64,000 nucleotides of DNA from Thermoanaerobaculia bacterium (lineage in GTDB: Bacteria; Acidobacteriota; Thermoanaerobaculia; Multivoradales; Multivoraceae), in NCBI GenBank assembly GCA_963664405.1, contig OY761158.1:3360001-3424000 (forward strand), written 5' to 3'. Below are positions 3,969 to 50,960 of the stretch, piece by piece (the first letter of the stretch is position 1; each line of letters begins with the position of its first letter). The translations under genes and the position numbers were made by a program. Below the pieces are notes generated by a model that worked only from the letters and a program-made list of their open reading frames with translations, did not search any database and was not told where the DNA came from.

Positions 3969-5201
3969 ATGCCACCCATGGACAGCGGACTCGACCTCTC
4001 ACCCCTACCCTTGAATCAGCGACGGTCGTCCGTTCTCGATGTGCTGTTGGTCTTCGCCGGAGCCAACATCGTCACCACGACATTGGTCACCGGTGGCTCG
4101 ATCGGAACCTCGTTCTCGCTCGCGGACGGTGCCGCCGTTGTCTTCATCGGCACTCTCGTTGGCACCGGTATTCTCGCGCTCCTATCTCGCCTCGGGCCTC
4201 GTTTCGCCGTACCGAGCATGGTGCTGCTGCGCCAGCCCTTCGGCGATCGTGGTTCCCAGGCAATCTCGCTGCTGCTGGTGCTGACGAACTTCGCCTGGAT
4301 CGCGCTGAATAACGTAATCGCCGGCAAGGCCCTCGCCAATCTGGCCGGCGGTGAGGAGTGGCTTTGGTCTGTCGCCGTCGGCGCGGCCGCGGTTGCTCTT
4401 ACTCTCTACGGTCCTCGGGCAATGGCCCTCTTCAACCGATTCGCGGTGCCTCTACTCGTGGTGGTCGGCGTCGCACTCACCGTGGCGCTGTCTACGGCCG
4501 AGAATCGAGCTCGTCTGGCGCTGCCGGGTACGGGATCGCTGAGCTGGCTCGGCGGCCTCGACCTGGTCATCGGCTACCAGGTGAGCTGGAGTCTCATGTT
4601 CGCGGACTACACCCGCTTTCAGCGTCGCGAGAGCCGCGCTGCATTGGCCGTCTTTCTGGGCATGACCCTCAGTAGCATGTGGTTGATGACCCTCGGCGCC
4701 GCCGCCGGCAAAATCGGTGGCGCCAACGACCCCACCGCGATGATCCTGGGTGTCGGACTGCCGATCGCGGCCCTCCTGTTGATGGCGCTCTCAACGATCA
4801 CGACCAACTTCGTGAATCTCTATCTGTCCTCGTTGGCGGTCCGCAATCTGTGGAGCGCGGCGCCGGCGGCGCGTACGGTTCTGACCCTTGGCGCCATTGG
4901 GACCGCACTCGGACTCGCCTCACCGAACCTGCTCGACAGCTACGCCGGATTCATGGGCTGGATCGGATCGAGCTTCCTGCCGATCGTTGCCATCGTCATC
5001 GTGCATTTCTTCTCGCTCCACCGAGAACCGGACCTACCCGCCACTCGCACAGGGTCGATCGCCGCGATGGCGGCGTGGGCAGCGGGCGTCGCCACCTATC
5101 TGCTAGCTCTGCACGTCTACTCGAACTGGGGTGCGACGCTGCCGACCCTGTTGGTCTCAGGCCTCTGCTACCGGATACTCTGCCGCCCTTCGAGAGACTG
5201 A
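3969..5201 (+). CDS. NCS1 family purine-cytosine/hydroxymethylpyrimidine permease (CytX-like)
   Basis: ~12 TM segments; FGDRGS, SWSLMFADYTRF, TITTNFVNLY motifs; start uncertain (3969 or 3978). Confidence 0.8.
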   Translation: MPPMDSGLDLSPLPLNQRRSSVLDVLLVFAGANIVTTTLVTGGSIGTSFSLADGAAVVFIGTLVGTGILALLSRLGPRFAVPSMVLLRQPFGDRGSQAISLLLVLTNFAWIALNNVIAGKALANLAGGEEWLWSVAVGAAAVALTLYGPRAMALFNRFAVPLLVVVGVALTVALSTAENRARLALPGTGSLSWLGGLDLVIGYQVSWSLMFADYTRFQRRESRAALAVFLGMTLSSMWLMTLGAAAGKIGGANDPTAMILGVGLPIAALLLMALSTITTNFVNLYLSSLAVRNLWSAAPAARTVLTLGAIGTALGLASPNLLDSYAGFMGWIGSSFLPIVAIVIVHFFSLHREPDLPATRTGSIAAMAAWAAGVATYLLALHVYSNWGATLPTLLVSGLCYRILCRPSRD

Positions 5202-5343
5202 CACCTGCGCCGTCCTCGGCGCCACGTCCTTTGGCCGAAGGAAGGCGAGCTGTCTCCAATAGCTCAAACTCGTGACCCATGAGTCAAGTCTTCCCTGGTG
5301 CGAGCTCGTGCCGGTGAGGTGGGGTGCCCTGGACGCCCGGCCG

Positions 5344-5434
5344 CTAGGAGTCTGTCCGAGTATTCGGACAGGCGAGTAGTTCTCAGGCGGGGATGGGCCG
5401 GAGAACGGGCCGAAGGCGCGTTCTCCGGGGCTAG
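5344..5434. repeat. CTAG-bounded repeat unit A (~90 bp)
   Basis: Near-identical to 43680-43761 and 43758-43848; internal hairpins CTGTCCGA/TCGGACAG and CCGGAGAACG/CGTTCTCCGG. Confidence 0.9.
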
Positions 5435-5549
5435 GAGCGTGTATCTGGACTCCAATGTCAACAGGGGTGGGTCGGTCTTCTTGTTCTTCGATAGAGGTTT
5501 CCTTGGTGTGTAATCACAGGCAGTATGGAGGTCGATGGTGAGTCAAGAC

Positions 5550-5700
5550 AGCAGACGTATCTCCGGCCTGTAGTGGGCGATTATTAGCGCCGGGCCATGA
5601 TGAAGAAATGCGCGTGAGGGAGCCGAATCGTCCGAAAGGGCCTCGAAGGCCAACGCTCCTATCGGCTTTTCCCCCCACGCCAGTCTGACTGGAAACCATC
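5550..5700 (-). ncRNA. putative bridge/seek RNA of the IS1111 element (ends approximate)
   Basis: Stem AGCCGA/TCGGCT (5621-5626/5662-5667) encloses target-matching ACGCTCCTA and GTCCGA; donor-matching ATGATGAA and TATCT lie further 3' in the RNA. Confidence 0.75.
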
Positions 5701-5790
5701 AGAATTCTCTACTCGCGCTGTCGGAGTGTTTGTGAGTGTTCAATTTGAAGTCTTCGGGTGCGTTGGGGTCCAGAGATCGAGGCCAAGGGC

Positions 5791-6831
5791 TCAGGCCGTG
5801 ACTTGCCGTGGAGGCTGCAGCTGGAAGGAGGTCTCGTGGGTCCAGACCGCCCAGACAACGCGTGCGAGCTTGTTGGCGAGGGCAACGGCGGCCCGGTTCC
5901 GTCCCCGCGAGCTCTCGACTCTGAGGGCCCACTGTTCGAGCCTACCGGCGGGTCCCTTTCTCCTCGCCCAGCTGAGCACCGACCTGGCGCCATGAATGAG
6001 GAGAGTTCGTAAGTACGCGTCCCCGCGTTTGCTGATCCTGCCGAGCCACCGCCGAGCGCCACTGGAGTGTTCCCTAGGAGTCAGTCCGAGATAGCTGGCG
6101 AGATGCCGGCCGCTTTTGAAGCGGCGAATGTCTCCGATCCAAGCGACCATGGCTGTGGCCGTGAGTACGCCTACGCCCTTGATCGTCAGGAGTCGCTTCA
6201 CGGCCTCGTCCTGGCGCGCGAGGGCTTGGATCTGTGCCTCGAGCTCTTGGATCTTCGTGGTCAGCTCGTCGATGTGGTCACAGATGCTTTCGAAAAAGGG
6301 TCGCAAGACGAGCGGGATCTCGGTATCCGGATCCGCGAGCCAGACGCGGACGCGCGGCAGGACCTGGGCGCGTCCCTGGGGCAGAAAGAGCCCGAGCTCT
6401 CGTAGGTGCCCGCGCAGAGCATTGATGTGGGCGGTGCGATCGTCCATGAACGACGAACGGATGCGATGGAGCGTGGTCATCGTCTGCTGCTCGAGCGATT
6501 TGACCGGCACGGGTAGGATGTCCTCGTTTCGATGCGCCTCGAGCATGCCCGTGGTATCCGTTCGATCCGATTTATTGCGCAACACATAGCGCCGGGTGAA
6601 ATGCGGTGGCAGCAGGATCACCTCGTGGCCGAGACTCTGAATACGCCGGCCCCAGTAGTGCGCCGAACCGCAGGCTTCCATGAGGACGGTCGCGGGCTTG
6701 ATCTGCGCGAAGAACCTGAGGAATTTCGCCCTGCGCACGCGCTGCCTCTCGGCGACCTTACCCGGCTCGTAAGACACCGCGATCTCGAAGACATCCTTGG
6801 CGATATCGACTGCGATACGTGTACTCTTCAT
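5791..6831 (-). CDS. IS110 family DEDD recombinase/transposase
   Basis: IAVDIAK, MEACG, KSDRTD (DEDD) and C-terminal HSSG...GRISKRGD; ATG 6831 with GGGAG RBS. Confidence 0.95.
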   Translation of the reverse strand: MKSTRIAVDIAKDVFEIAVSYEPGKVAERQRVRRAKFLRFFAQIKPATVLMEACGSAHYWGRRIQSLGHEVILLPPHFTRRYVLRNKSDRTDTTGMLEAHRNEDILPVPVKSLEQQTMTTLHRIRSSFMDDRTAHINALRGHLRELGLFLPQGRAQVLPRVRVWLADPDTEIPLVLRPFFESICDHIDELTTKIQELEAQIQALARQDEAVKRLLTIKGVGVLTATAMVAWIGDIRRFKSGRHLASYLGLTPREHSSGARRWLGRISKRGDAYLRTLLIHGARSVLSWARRKGPAGRLEQWALRVESSRGRNRAAVALANKLARVVWAVWTHETSFQLQPPRQVTA

Positions 6832-6920
6832 CGTGGACTCCCTTTCTACGATCAACGTTTGCGACTTAGGTGACCCCTGGCACATAGATGCCGAAGTCAC
6901 CGGGGAGTCCATTTCATCAT

Positions 6921-7040
6921 CCGAGTATTCGTCCTGAGCCGTTTCCGTGAGCGAATAGGAAGCAACGCCCAAGTGCGCCGTCCTCGGCGCCGAAAGACAA
7001 CTAGGCGGAGGAAATGATAGCCATCATTTCTGGAGCCTAG
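6921..7040. repeat. repeat unit B, distal part (interrupted by the IS; proximal part 5431-5442)
   Basis: Matches 33091-33224 apart from a short internal indel; ends in CTAG. Confidence 0.9.
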
Positions 7041-7417
7041 GGCGGGTCCTCGGTTCCTCGGGTCGTCCAGGGGCCGCACTTGAGAAGGCGAACCATCGAG
7101 CGCGCCGTGCCTCTGGCAGCGCCGTACTTTTCGATCGATGCCGCCGCATATCGGCTGCATGTGGGAGTGAAGCGGCAGTGCACTCCCAAAACCGGCATCA
7201 CCCTCGACAGGGTTGCCTGGTAGGCGTGAATGCCGCCGAGAAAGAGGCGTCCCGTCCACTGCTGCTGTGGAGCCCGAGCGAGATCGAAGAACAGCAAGAA
7301 GGCGGCCGCGGGCGCAATCAGAAGCCTCCATCGACGAGGCCGAACCGACGCGACCGCCACAGCCCTCTCGTCCGCGCCCGCGACACGACCGGCATCCCCG
7401 GCCGTGTCGGGGCTCAT
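7037..7417 (-). CDS. YidD-like membrane protein insertion efficiency factor paralog
   Basis: YQATLS...CRFTPTCSRYA...RLLKCGPW..G.EDP; extra N-terminal hydrophobic segment. Confidence 0.8.
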   Translation of the reverse strand: MSPDTAGDAGRVAGADERAVAVASVRPRRWRLLIAPAAAFLLFFDLARAPQQQWTGRLFLGGIHAYQATLSRVMPVLGVHCRFTPTCSRYAAASIEKYGAARGTARSMVRLLKCGPWTTRGTEDPP

Positions 7418-7427
7418 CCCTTGCGTT

Positions 7428-7853
7428 TCAAAAACGGTCGGCGTACTGGCTGACTCCGGGAACGAGAAAACGCCCGCCACCGACGCCTTTGACAATACAC
7501 ACCACGCGGACGACGAGAGTGGCGATCCAAACCGGAATCATCGCCAACGCTCCTAGGCAACCGAGGCCGGGGATCATCGAAATTACCGTGAAGGCAACCC
7601 ACAAGATGATCTCCGCGACCAAGAGTACGAGCCCGTGCTTGGCATGCCACTGCACCTCTTTGTCTTCCTTCTCTACCAGCAGTGGTACCAACGCCAGAAT
7701 CCACAGGTAGGACAAGACGACCATGACCGTGTTTACATTGCCCTCTCCTCCTCCGGCGGAGGCTGAGGGTGGTGGCGGCGGCCCTCCCGAGGGAGGCTGA
7801 GGTGGTTCAGGCGGACCCGGCGGCGGCGGCGGCGGGGTTTCGGGCTCACTCAT
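7428..7853 (-). CDS. DUF4870-like membrane protein with Pro-rich N-terminus
   Basis: LSYLWILALVPLLVEKEDKEVQWHAKHGL pattern, 3 TM segments. Confidence 0.75.
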   Translation of the reverse strand: MSEPETPPPPPPGPPEPPQPPSGGPPPPPSASAGGGEGNVNTVMVVLSYLWILALVPLLVEKEDKEVQWHAKHGLVLLVAEIILWVAFTVISMIPGLGCLGALAMIPVWIATLVVRVVCIVKGVGGGRFLVPGVSQYADRF

Positions 7854-13905: not shown

Positions 13906-14259
13906 GGGGGCGATCGGTTTAGACGGGGAACTTGGCGCGCTGAAGGTTGCGTGTCGCCTGCTCGTACGACAAACGGGCATTTTTATACCTGCCAATAACG
14001 ACTTGGCTTTGGCGGCCTAGGCTGTCAACGATTCGATAGAGCTGTCTTGATTCGCGGCTTCTAACGGATTGTCATAAATGCGGATCCCCACGGCGGAGGG
14101 AGGTCTCGCTCCTCCGCCTGGGTACTTAGCGAGTACTGGCCTATGGGACGGGGTGCTTTCTCCCAAAGCCTATAGGTAAGACCTCAATCGAAAGCTACGC
14201 ACGTAGACGCCTCGGGGCGTGTTTTCCGGACGTGGGTTCGATTCCCACCGCCTCCACCA
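13906..14259 (+). ncRNA. ssrA: tmRNA; tag ANNDLALAA
   Basis: 5' GGGGGCG..GAC, 3' GGTTCGATTCCCACCGCCTCCACCA; tag reading frame 13991-14020. Confidence 0.95.
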
Positions 14260-31954: not shown

Positions 31955-33082
31955 ATGAAGCTGGAAAACAAACACTCTCATCATCGCGTCGGCTTCCTCG
32001 CCCTAGTCTGCATCGTTGCCTGGGTGGCCGGCTGCGACCGCGCCGAAAGCTGGGAAGCGCGTCGCAATCAGCTCGTACCGAGCCGTTCACGTCACTCGGT
32101 CCGCATGCCAACGGTGCACAATCGCCGGGCCCTGGTAACCGCGTCGATGTCACAGCAGTCGCCCGCACCACCAACTCCGATCCGGCTAGAGGCTGAGAAG
32201 GTTCCAGAGCCTGAGCACGACCGTTCGGCGGCGTCCTCTCTCGGCGCAGAGGTGGCGAAACCGAGCTACCCCTCGGCCGAGGCCGCCTACCGCGACAAGA
32301 ACTGGGAGCGCGCGACACAGCTCTATCGCAATCGAACGGAGCGATCTCCAAACCTCGGCTGGAATCACTACATGCTTGGACTATCGGCGTGGAGAGCCGG
32401 ACTCCTGGCAGAATCGCAGTCGGCCTTCGCACGAGTCCTGGAATTGGACCCGAACCACACCAAGAGCATGCTCAATCTGAGCCGCGTGCTACTCGAGGAT
32501 GGGCGACCGCACAACGCCTTGCGCTACGTTGAAGGCGCTCTGGCCAACAACCCCAAGTCCAGCGTGGCGTATCGAGTCCTCGGCGAAGTCCACGAAGCTC
32601 TCGGCAGCGACCAGCGGGCGATCAATTCCTATCGCAAGGCGCTGGCGCTTCACGACCAGGACGTCTGGGCAATGAATCGGCTAGGGATGGTGCTGAGCCG
32701 CGAGGGTCGCCACCAGGAGGCACTGCCGCCTCTCGCGCGAGCTGTCGAGCTAAGACGGGACGTGGCCTCTCTGCAGATCGATCTCGGTCTCGCGTTGGAG
32801 CGGGACGGTCACTACTACTCCGCGGGGTCACGCTACAAGGCGGCGCTGGCGATCGACCGGACGAATGAGGTCGCCGCGCTCGGGGTCGCTCGAGTAAAGC
32901 AGCTGAACGAGCCGCCTGGACCCCGATGGGTGGACCTCGGGATGCTTGCAAAGAAATTCGTCGACGGCCTCGAGGAAGAACGGAGCGCGCTAGCGACGGA
33001 GAACGTCTCCGGTCCGGAGGGCGCTGTCGCCGACGGGGATCGAAGTGGAGACACCGACTCGATCTCGCAAGGCGGTTCCTAG
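31955..33082 (+). CDS. TPR repeat (lipo)protein
   Basis: Hydrophobic leader with VAGC, followed by ~6 TPR motifs. Confidence 0.85.
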   Translation: MKLENKHSHHRVGFLALVCIVAWVAGCDRAESWEARRNQLVPSRSRHSVRMPTVHNRRALVTASMSQQSPAPPTPIRLEAEKVPEPEHDRSAASSLGAEVAKPSYPSAEAAYRDKNWERATQLYRNRTERSPNLGWNHYMLGLSAWRAGLLAESQSAFARVLELDPNHTKSMLNLSRVLLEDGRPHNALRYVEGALANNPKSSVAYRVLGEVHEALGSDQRAINSYRKALALHDQDVWAMNRLGMVLSREGRHQEALPPLARAVELRRDVASLQIDLGLALERDGHYYSAGSRYKAALAIDRTNEVAALGVARVKQLNEPPGPRWVDLGMLAKKFVDGLEEERSALATENVSGPEGAVADGDRSGDTDSISQGGS

Positions 33083-33224
33083 GAGCGTGTCCGAGTATTC
33101 ATCCTGAGCCGTTTCCGTGAGCGAATAGGAAGCAACGCCCAAGTGCGCCGTCCTCGGCGCCAAGAGACAACTAGGCGGGGCGCGCCCAGCGGAGGAAATG
33201 ATAGCCATCATTTCTGGAGCCTAG
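33079..33224. repeat. CTAG-bounded repeat unit B, intact (empty IS target)
   Basis: Equals 5431-5442 plus 6921-7040 joined; begins at the TPR gene TAG. Confidence 0.9.
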
Positions 33225-43622: not shown

Positions 43623-43848
43623 CTAGGACCAGCGTTCCAAAGTTCGTGCTGCATAGCTCGAGGTCATTCTGTTCGTTGGCTAGGAGCCTGCGAAGCAGGC
43701 GAGTAGTTCTCAGGCGGGGATGGGCCGGAGAACGGGCCGAAGGCGCGTTTTCCGGGGCTAGGAGCGTGTCCGAGAATTCGGACAGGCGAGTAGTTCTCAG
43801 GCGGGGATGGGCCGGAAAACGGGCCGATGGCGCGTTTTCTGGGGCTAG
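43623..43848. repeat. CTAG-linked chain: half of element C + unit A variant + unit A
   Basis: CTAG at 43623, 43680, 43758 and 43845; the last is the parB stop. Confidence 0.9.
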
Positions 43849-49982: not shown

Positions 49983-50072
49983 TGGCGGAGAGGGTGGGAT
50001 TCGAACCCACGGATCGCGTAAACGATCAACGGTTTTCGAGACCGCCCCGTTCGACCACTCTGGCACCTCTCC
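49983..50072 (-). tRNA. tRNA-Ser(CGA)
   Basis: GGAGAGG acceptor stem, anticodon loop CT-CGA-AA, long variable arm, CCA end. Confidence 0.96.
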
Positions 50073-50111
50073 TACTCTCAAACACAAACCTCCAGGTCCA
50101 GCCCACTCGGA

Positions 50112-50202
<91 letters not shown>

Positions 50203-50817: not shown

Positions 50818-50960
50818 GGTGGGGAGCCCCCCGTGAAGGGTTCGGGCCCTGTGCGTTGAGGGGCTCCGAACCTCGTCAGGCCCGGAAGGGAGCAGCGATA
50901 AGGTGTTCTCCTCGAGCGCCGCAGTTTCAGCCGGAACCCTTCACGCGAGGCTCCTGCACC
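50818..50960 (+). ncRNA. ffs: SRP RNA
   Basis: TCAGGCCCGGAAGGGAGCAGC domain IV inside a long hairpin; upstream of dnaX. Confidence 0.9.

Follow-up and report, generated by a model that had tools for sequence, protein, structure and literature searches.

Insertion sequences (IS) of the IS110/IS1111 type choose their targets by means of an RNA derived from a non-coding region of the element, which is called seekRNA (PMC11187229) or bridge RNA (PMC11208160). In Pseudomonas putida KT2440 two IS110-family elements, ISPpu9 and ISPpu10, are located in repetitive extragenic palindromic (REP) or other conserved intergenic sequences; for ISPpu10, bridge-RNA-guided target recognition and a hybrid promoter at the circle junction are also reported. 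Here we analyse a 64,000-nt stretch of DNA from a Thermoanaerobaculia bacterium (G000:C1:3360001-3424000, hereafter the window, in a single 6.78-Mb contig, 62.6% G+C) which carries a complete element of 1478 bp, IS-A, at positions 5443-6920 on the minus strand, its boundaries being set by comparison of filled and empty sites. IS-A very probably inserts by RNA-guided, site-specific recombination into a 16-nt sequence, TAGGAGCGTGT|CCGAG, which forms the head of modular intergenic repeats. A first-pass annotation of the window had pointed to an IS1111 element aimed at a repeat family and had described repeat targeting by IS110/IS1111 members as known, which ISPpu9 and ISPpu10 bear out.

To the left of IS-A, positions 5431-5442 (plus strand) read CTAGGAGCGTGT, which sequence reading and copy comparison identify as the left half of an interrupted target head and the start of a B-type repeat unit. 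To its right, 6921-6930 reads CCGAGTATTC, the opening of the remainder of this 128-bp B unit, which extends from 6921 to 7036 (plus strand) by the B consensus. Removing 5443-6920 in silico yields CTAGGAGCGTGT|CCGAGTATTC; no target duplication is seen, and the junctions are ambiguous by one base only, a T on the plus strand (GTGT|ATCT ... TCAT|CCGA), just as the first-pass annotation had read them. The joined 22-mer, searched for in the window with up to three mismatches allowed, recurs at the three places which had been claimed for it: exactly at 33079-33100 (plus strand; an empty target in a B-unit head), with one mismatch at 43758-43779 (plus strand; an empty A-type head, CCGAGAATTC, in which the 16-mer covered by the proposed guides is exact) and with two mismatches at 5344-5365. 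This last match opens an A-type unit of 87 bp (5344-5430, plus strand) directly upstream of the filled B unit; its head is empty and has two mismatches to the target guide 1 described below. The number of 22-mer matches expected by chance was 0.00 in 100 shuffles.

The whole genome holds three copies of IS-A at 99.7-100% identity (blastn), all three of them in CTAGGAGCGTGT|CCGAG(T/A)ATTC. Their left flanks diverge directly past the 12-nt head, and their right flanks continue as a B unit (copies 1 and 3) or as an A unit (copy 2). A sister element of 1439 bp, IS-B, is 73% identical to IS-A in the transposase gene (tnp) and 84% in part of the non-coding region (blastn), has the same termini and is inserted at the same base; it is represented by two intact copies and two fragments. 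A genome-wide search with junction strings found six left and six right IS-A/IS-B junctions, all exact at TAGGAGCGTGT|CCGAG, and at none of the 12 does a terminus of either element adjoin other sequence. Copies in unrelated sequence, which the first-pass annotation had named as the finding that would speak against its reading, did not turn up, and the genome search that it had proposed returned three IS-A, IS-B and 63 exact empty 16-mers; filled sites (12 junctions) and empty ones (63 heads) are both present, as it had claimed. The orientation of the IS relative to the head is constant across copies, and the outer flanks differ among the IS-bearing loci. IS-A inserts site-specifically, in a fixed orientation and without target duplication. 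The two IS-B fragments are collinear and lie 41 kb apart, with another IS of 1846 bp at or near the breaks; they may be halves of one copy, and the number of insertion events is therefore six or seven.

Public sequencing runs offer a further view of the locus. Part of the stretch is contained in 18 rows and most of it in seven runs from two studies, in the form of assembled contigs. In four public runs a single unitig spans 5431-6931, that is, the IS together with 12 and 11 nt of shared head, and its depth is ~2.6-3.7x that of the unique flanks; a depth of about three is consistent with three IS-A copies in the same kind of site. The joints listed in these runs fall within the flanking repeats. 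A precise empty allele at the IS-A loci would read CTAGGAGCGTGTCCGAG; neither a contig omitting 5443-6920 nor a clean circle junction was seen in the four runs, whose contigs cannot show minor alleles.

Two observations on the surroundings of IS-B may be added. The 1846-bp IS (G000:C1:6023837-6025682 and 5987742-5989107) is itself multi-copy, with at least seven full copies, and truncates one IS-B; at a distance of 41 kb, the second IS-B fragment has a partial inverted copy of it close by. This arrangement suggests that an IS-mediated rearrangement split one IS-B. At G000:C1:6026854-6028379 (L029) two IS-B stand in tandem with one A-type unit between them, the heads of successive array units being occupied.

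The uninterrupted 16-mer, TAGGAGCGTGTCCGAG, is present 63 times exactly and 77 times with up to one mismatch in the whole genome, where simple arithmetic predicts ~0.003 copies of a random 16-mer. It heads repeat units of two kinds, 87 bp (A) and 128 bp (B) long, which upholds the earlier description of the target as a head common to two repeat units and refines it in that the units are modular. Unit A continues as the hairpin GTGTCCGAGAATTCGGACAG, the 3′ arm of which is not kept in unit B, and B-type heads read TCGTCC or TCGGCC in place of TCGGAC. A-type heads form a hairpin of 10 bp with a single mismatch (GCGTGTCCGA/TCGGACAGGC), the 5′ arm of which holds the insertion point. With nhmmer we obtained 84 matches to A and 257 to B or the B tail; 121 of the latter are tails only and the repeats are therefore modular. 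The separate module consists of positions 60-128 of the B unit, with the hairpins GCGCCGTCCTCGGCGC and GAAATGAT..ATCATTTC, and occurs those 121 times alone, without head or front half. Of the units picked out by the tail alone, 31 of 65 (A) and 24 of 100 (B) have an exact head. A special constraint on the head was considered and rejected: in these tail-selected units the mean identity is 0.67 for A heads and 0.53 for B heads, whereas the tails reach 0.93 and 0.77; the figures for the heads may be depressed by indels. Only two of the 63 heads fall in likely-coding open reading frames (ORFs), compared with 66% of the genome that is likely-coding by a crude ORF/GC3 mask, in line with the intergenic landing sites that the first-pass annotation had envisaged.

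Arrays of these units occur as tandem A-B, B-B-B and A-A arrangements, and the repeats have the properties used to define those of the REP/BIME (bacterial interspersed mosaic element) type, being short, intergenic, partly palindromic, present in many copies and arranged in mosaics. A gene for a REP-associated tyrosine (Y1) transposase (RAYT) was not found beside them: 13 weak PF01797 matches have their nearest exact head at 6.4-581 kb, in a weak test that counted exact heads only. With up to one mismatch the head motif is also carried by three genera of the host family besides its own (22 matches in G001, six in G004 and three in G008), and it is absent from the other 34 relatives searched except for single one-mismatch matches in three of them. 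IS-A and IS-B themselves were found in none but G000 among the 41 genomes searched. The array that holds IS-A sits between the 3′ ends of two convergent genes, and the ORF next to it (7037-7495, minus strand) contains the motif CRFTPTCSRY, which we take to be YidD-like. At gathering thresholds, a scan of the whole window against Rfam detected only tmRNA, the small SRP RNA and three tRNAs (13906-14259, 50840-50940, 2552-2633, 49986-50202).

By its long downstream non-coding region, its subterminal repeats, its 346-aa protein with the motif GLTPREHSSG and the lack of a target duplication, IS-A is an IS110-family insertion sequence of IS1111 architecture; the first three features and the motif are the marks of the IS1111 group given in PMC11187229 (sections 4 and 6) and in PMC11208160. 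The tnp gene (5791-6831, minus strand) begins with an ATG at 6831 and encodes 346 aa plus a stop codon. The first-pass identification of the element at 5443-6920 as IS1111-type agrees with the matches of its product to PF01548 (DEDD_Tnp_IS110; E 5.2e-11), PF02371 (Transposase_20; E 2.2e-27) and NCBIfam NF033542 ('IS110 family RNA-guided transposase'; 316.8 bits, cut-off 140); the two Pfam families represent the N-terminal DEDD/RuvC-like and the C-terminal domain that characterise IS110 transposases, and residues 182-332 also match the PDB entries of IS621 (8wt6; E 1.5e-10) and ISCro4 (E 1.3e-9). Among transposases named in plasmid records, that of ISPa25 comes closest (49.7% identity over 97% of the protein); ISPa25 is handled alongside the IS1111 member ISKpn4 in PMC11187229 (section 9). 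Transposases of the IS1111 group are 330-350 aa long and carry a GL-P----S(t)G motif (PMC11187229), as does the IS-A protein in both respects. The gene is uninterrupted in all three IS-A and both full IS-B copies, and IS-A is an active-looking element.

The non-coding DNA around tnp amounts to 348 nt downstream and 89 nt upstream. The subterminal inverted repeats are perfect over 8 bp, the left one, TGGACTCC (6904-6911, minus strand), being 9 nt and the right one, GGAGTCCA (5446-5453, minus strand), 3 nt off the respective terminus. The terminal extensions are thus 3 nt on the right (GAT) and 9 nt on the left (ATGATGAAA); counting the shared base with the opposite side of the junction would make them 4 and 8 nt. 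For the IS1111 group, repeats of 7-17 bp are given by Durrant et al. and of usually 11-13 bp by Siddiquee et al. (2024; PMC11187229), with extensions of 7 (or 6) bp at the left end and 3 bp at the right (PMC11187229); the IS-A repeats lie at the short end of the published range, the right extension agrees and the left one exceeds the published length. A small hairpin (CGGCATC..N..GTGCCA; 6855-6885, minus strand) follows the left subterminal repeat, ahead of the start codon, and is conserved also in the left ends of L001, L002, L008, L009, L013 and L015.

The 348-nt region downstream of tnp (5443-5790, minus strand) is in part 84% identical to that of IS-B, compared with 73% for tnp, and contains a conserved core (5542-5701, minus strand) which we propose as the seekRNA or bridge RNA, its fold being shared by seven homologues. 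Several short stretches of this core, all on the minus strand, correspond to the target or to the ends of the element. Target guide 1, RNA UAGGAGCGU (5653-5661), is complementary over 9 nt to ACGCTCCTA, positions +3 to +11 of the right-end flank. Target guide 2, RNA UCGGAC (5630-5635), sits 17 nt beyond guide 1 with a small hairpin between them; it has the sequence of TCGG|AC, which spans the insertion point, and can therefore pair with the other target strand, over 6 nt by Watson–Crick pairs (-4 to +2) or 8 nt with wobble (-5 to +3), thereby overlapping guide 1 at +3. Both guides together span exactly the 16 nt common to A and B heads, and the T/A difference lies just outside. Their order, with the top-strand complement first, and their overlap in the target match the seekRNA description for IS1111 elements, where the top-strand complement is 5′ of the bottom-strand match and the two overlap in the target (PMC11187229 section 9). 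In IS-B the first guide is unchanged (10 nt), and the second, UUCUCGGAC, is longer and matches A-type heads with 9 nt. A putative donor guide, RNA UUCAUCAU (5597-5604), is complementary to the outermost 8 nt at the left end of the element, ATGATGAA. Finally, a conserved AGAUAC (5557-5562) is identical to the right-end/flank junction AGAT|AC, and AGATACG is conserved in six of seven aligned homologues.

The relatives used for comparison were IS-C (54% protein identity, same genome), an element from a Marinacidobacterales metagenome-assembled genome (57%; L002 and L003), L008 (56%) and L009 (52%) from two genomes of the same order, and L001 from a Phycisphaeraceae contig; a transposase scan of genome contigs gave six loci and most of the comparative material came from the wider genome search. 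Their non-coding regions align with that of IS-A, and each folds alone into the same two-module shape. For 35 proposed pairs in seven homologues, 83.6% of the cells are paired, against 34-53% (maximum 53.3%) when the partners are slid, and compensatory changes on both sides are found at ten pairs, a number equalled by none of 500 shuffles; the test comprised seven sequences and a structure derived from IS-A. The first loop matches the right flank of its own element over 9 nt in IS-A, 10 in IS-B, 7 in IS-C, 9 in the Marinacidobacterales IS and, counting one G•T wobble, 9 in L008; where an element has a different target, the match to its flank does not exceed 5 nt of Watson–Crick pairs. As read by eye, the donor guide tracks A/G differences at left-end positions 6-8 among the relatives. 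In these alignments the guide stretches change with the target and the stems are kept. No empty site was found for the Marinacidobacterales IS, the 14-nt left flank of which occurs exactly only at the two filled sites, with seven one-mismatch matches in unrelated contexts; its boundaries were therefore set only by analogy.

Other mobile elements came to light in this comparison. An IS21-family element of 3390 bp (IstA with rve and Mu-transposase C-terminal domains, plus IstB; G000:C1:593337-596726, L054) is present in at least 22 copies of ~100% identity; one of these copies interrupts IS-C, and GTCTA is duplicated there. There is also a more distant family of IS1111-like elements, at 38% protein identity, with the subterminal repeat GGTCCGCCCCGC; it is represented by L010-L012, L017-L019, L021-L023, L025 and L026, and G010, G021 and G022, which belong to a sister genus, contain 24, three and five matches. 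On the right these elements are flanked by GC-rich hairpins, of which GCCGACGTCCCCGTCGGC is an example, so that the family looks like another repeat-targeting lineage.

We have combined these data in a model for the movement of IS-A. No sigma-70-like promoter was found within the integrated element. An outward-facing -35 hexamer TTGACA in the right end (5456-5461, minus strand) would come to lie 17 nt from TGAAAT of the left end in a circular form, and this candidate junction promoter, TTGACA-17-TGAAAT, has 10 of 12 matches plus a TG and is also present in IS-B; the Marinacidobacterales IS has TTGACA-17-TATGAT as its equivalent. Junction promoters in circles of this IS family have been described (PMC11187229 introduction). 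The element would excise as a circle, uniting the right-end -35 hexamer with the -10-like sequence of the left end, and the resulting promoter would drive tnp and the downstream non-coding region. The latter would yield a seekRNA or bridge RNA with two stem-loop modules. In the first, UAGGAGCGU would pair with one target strand and UCGGAC with the opposite strand across the crossover point; in the second, UUCAUCAU would pair with the IS left end. The DEDD/serine recombinase would then exchange strands, leaving the target unduplicated. Our analysis shows the site specificity, the constant orientation, the lack of duplication, the complementarities with their covariation in relatives and the conserved fold; from published work on ISEc11, ISKpn4, ISPa11 and IS621 we infer both the circle with its junction promoter and that the predicted RNA is made, binds the transposase and directs insertion.

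A number of observations weigh against RNA-guided targeting as set out here. The 8-bp subterminal repeats and the 9-nt left extension of IS-A depart from the usual 11-13 bp and 7 nt of the seekRNA paper. Rfam 15 gave no match at E up to 1 in window positions 5000-7500, and no public RNA run containing the stretch was listed. In IS-A the second target guide is short (6 nt of Watson–Crick pairs), and for the bottom-strand guide of IS-C, a copy interrupted by the IS21-family element, there is no convincing match (4 nt). The register of guide 1 varies: it starts at +3 in IS-A, IS-C and L008, and at +1 in the Marinacidobacterales IS with its boundaries placed by analogy. A 5′ segment of the RNA can likewise pair with the donor guide (helix 1, 92.7% paired), so that the match of this guide to the IS end could be partly structural, which makes the donor role less certain. 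Finally, the crossover shares only 1 nt between target and donor, compared with the 2-nt core of IS621.

Other explanations were considered as well. Were the transposase protein alone to recognise the target, for instance by the hairpin that A-type heads form, any complementarity found in the non-coding region would be incidental. Such a mechanism would suit the position of the insertion point in the 5′ arm of that hairpin and the targets of three relatives, which are palindromic too, and a target stem-loop is reported as a specificity determinant of ISPpu10. However, B-type heads without the 3′ arm are also used (IS-A copies 1 and 3 and the IS-B fragment at 5984705), the loop sequences vary with the target in four independent elements, and RNA derived from the non-coding region was experimentally required in four IS1111 members (PMC11187229). 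Recognition by protein alone therefore appears unlikely to us. IS-A copies 1 and 3 have an identical 60-nt B-type right flank, which might point to segmental duplication of the IS with its flanks, or to their homologous recombination, as the source of the copies in place of repeated insertion; repeats could indeed support recombination. But the three left flanks diverge past the 12-nt head, the right flank of copy 2 is A-type, a second IS that is only 73% identical occupies the same base at other loci and the restored sites equal 63 empty ones, all of which renders duplication very unlikely.

The repeat units might also be thought to derive from the IS, as excision footprints or as remnants like miniature inverted-repeat transposable elements (MITEs), and would then be no independent target. 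A stretch within the B-unit tail, ATCATTTC, does loosely resemble the IS end CATTTCATCAT, yet blastn found no similarity between units and IS past the junction base, the heads are continuous in the empty sites, and the head motif is present in G001 (22), G004 (6) and G008 (3), genera without IS-A and IS-B; an origin of the repeats from the IS is extremely improbable in our view. A different idea concerns the arrays themselves. In this view the head does more than receive insertions: since not all A and B units bear it and guides for it are kept by two IS species, repeat modules may be moved or shuffled by the bridge-type recombination that takes place at heads, and the IS would help to build the mosaic arrays. 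Targeting would, in addition, do without a stem-loop of the kind reported as a specificity gate for ISPpu10. We regard this extension as unlikely; it would resemble the way in which ssr9 rides on the ISPpu9 transposase.

RNA-guided insertion into the repeat heads remains the reading that we favour, and with it a single chromosome becomes an internally controlled illustration of RNA-guided target choice, in which two diverged transposases with conserved guides, one retargeted relative and ~63 free sites, found on hairpin-forming heads as well as on heads that form none, are combined. The use of heads with and without the hairpin arm argues that a sequence match, not target structure, suffices. 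Insertion of this kind would explain how copies of an IS can accumulate in a genome dense with genes and yet leave those genes intact, and IS-A could serve as a compact bridge/seek system with a defined 16-nt natural target.

No new principle is added, as repeat targeting by IS1111 elements, guidance by seekRNA or bridge RNA, diverged transposases with one target and natural retargeting are already known and published. Judging by their titles, Tobes & Pareja 2006, Partridge & Hall 2003 and Post & Hall 2009 reportedly deal with repeat targeting by IS110/IS1111; ISPa11 is said to target REP, and ISKpn4, ISPst6 and ISPa25 reportedly target attC sites, as a reference title has it. With ISPpu9 and ISPpu10, IS-A has in common that several copies per genome are all found in one repeated intergenic sequence. 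It differs from them in using heads with and without the hairpin arm, in its host lineage and in its repeat family; the bridge RNA of ISPpu10 is moreover of the IS110 type and encoded upstream of tnp (Durrant et al.), whereas the non-coding region of IS-A is downstream and accompanied by 8-bp subterminal repeats.

ISPa11 and other REP-targeting IS1111/IS110 members resemble IS-A in their conserved repeated target and in the strand order of the seekRNA (PMC11187229 sections 9 and 13); compared with ISPa11, the target of IS-A is the head of modular 87/128-bp repeats with no Y1/RAYT gene near the heads. ISKpn4, ISPst6 and ISPa25 have diverged transposases (86% and 46%) and keep the target-matching stretches, the fold and the site (PMC11187229), as do IS-A and IS-B at 73%, with the differences that the target is another one and that IS-A and IS-B coexist in one chromosome. 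The natural retargeting seen between ISEc11 and ISXne4, where stems are kept and loops change with the flanks (PMC11187229), recurs in the comparison of IS-A with IS-C, the Marinacidobacterales IS and L008; it was confirmed by experiment for the former pair, whereas the IS-A case is known from sequence alone. IS621 belongs to the same protein family and has an RNA with two modules, for target and donor. Its RNA is, however, encoded upstream of the gene in the left end (Durrant et al.), and IS-A shares at most 1 nt between target and donor. What is particular to the present case is the host lineage together with a modular repeat family for which no name was found; in every respect tested the IS-A locus fits the published picture, with small deviations in the geometry of its ends.

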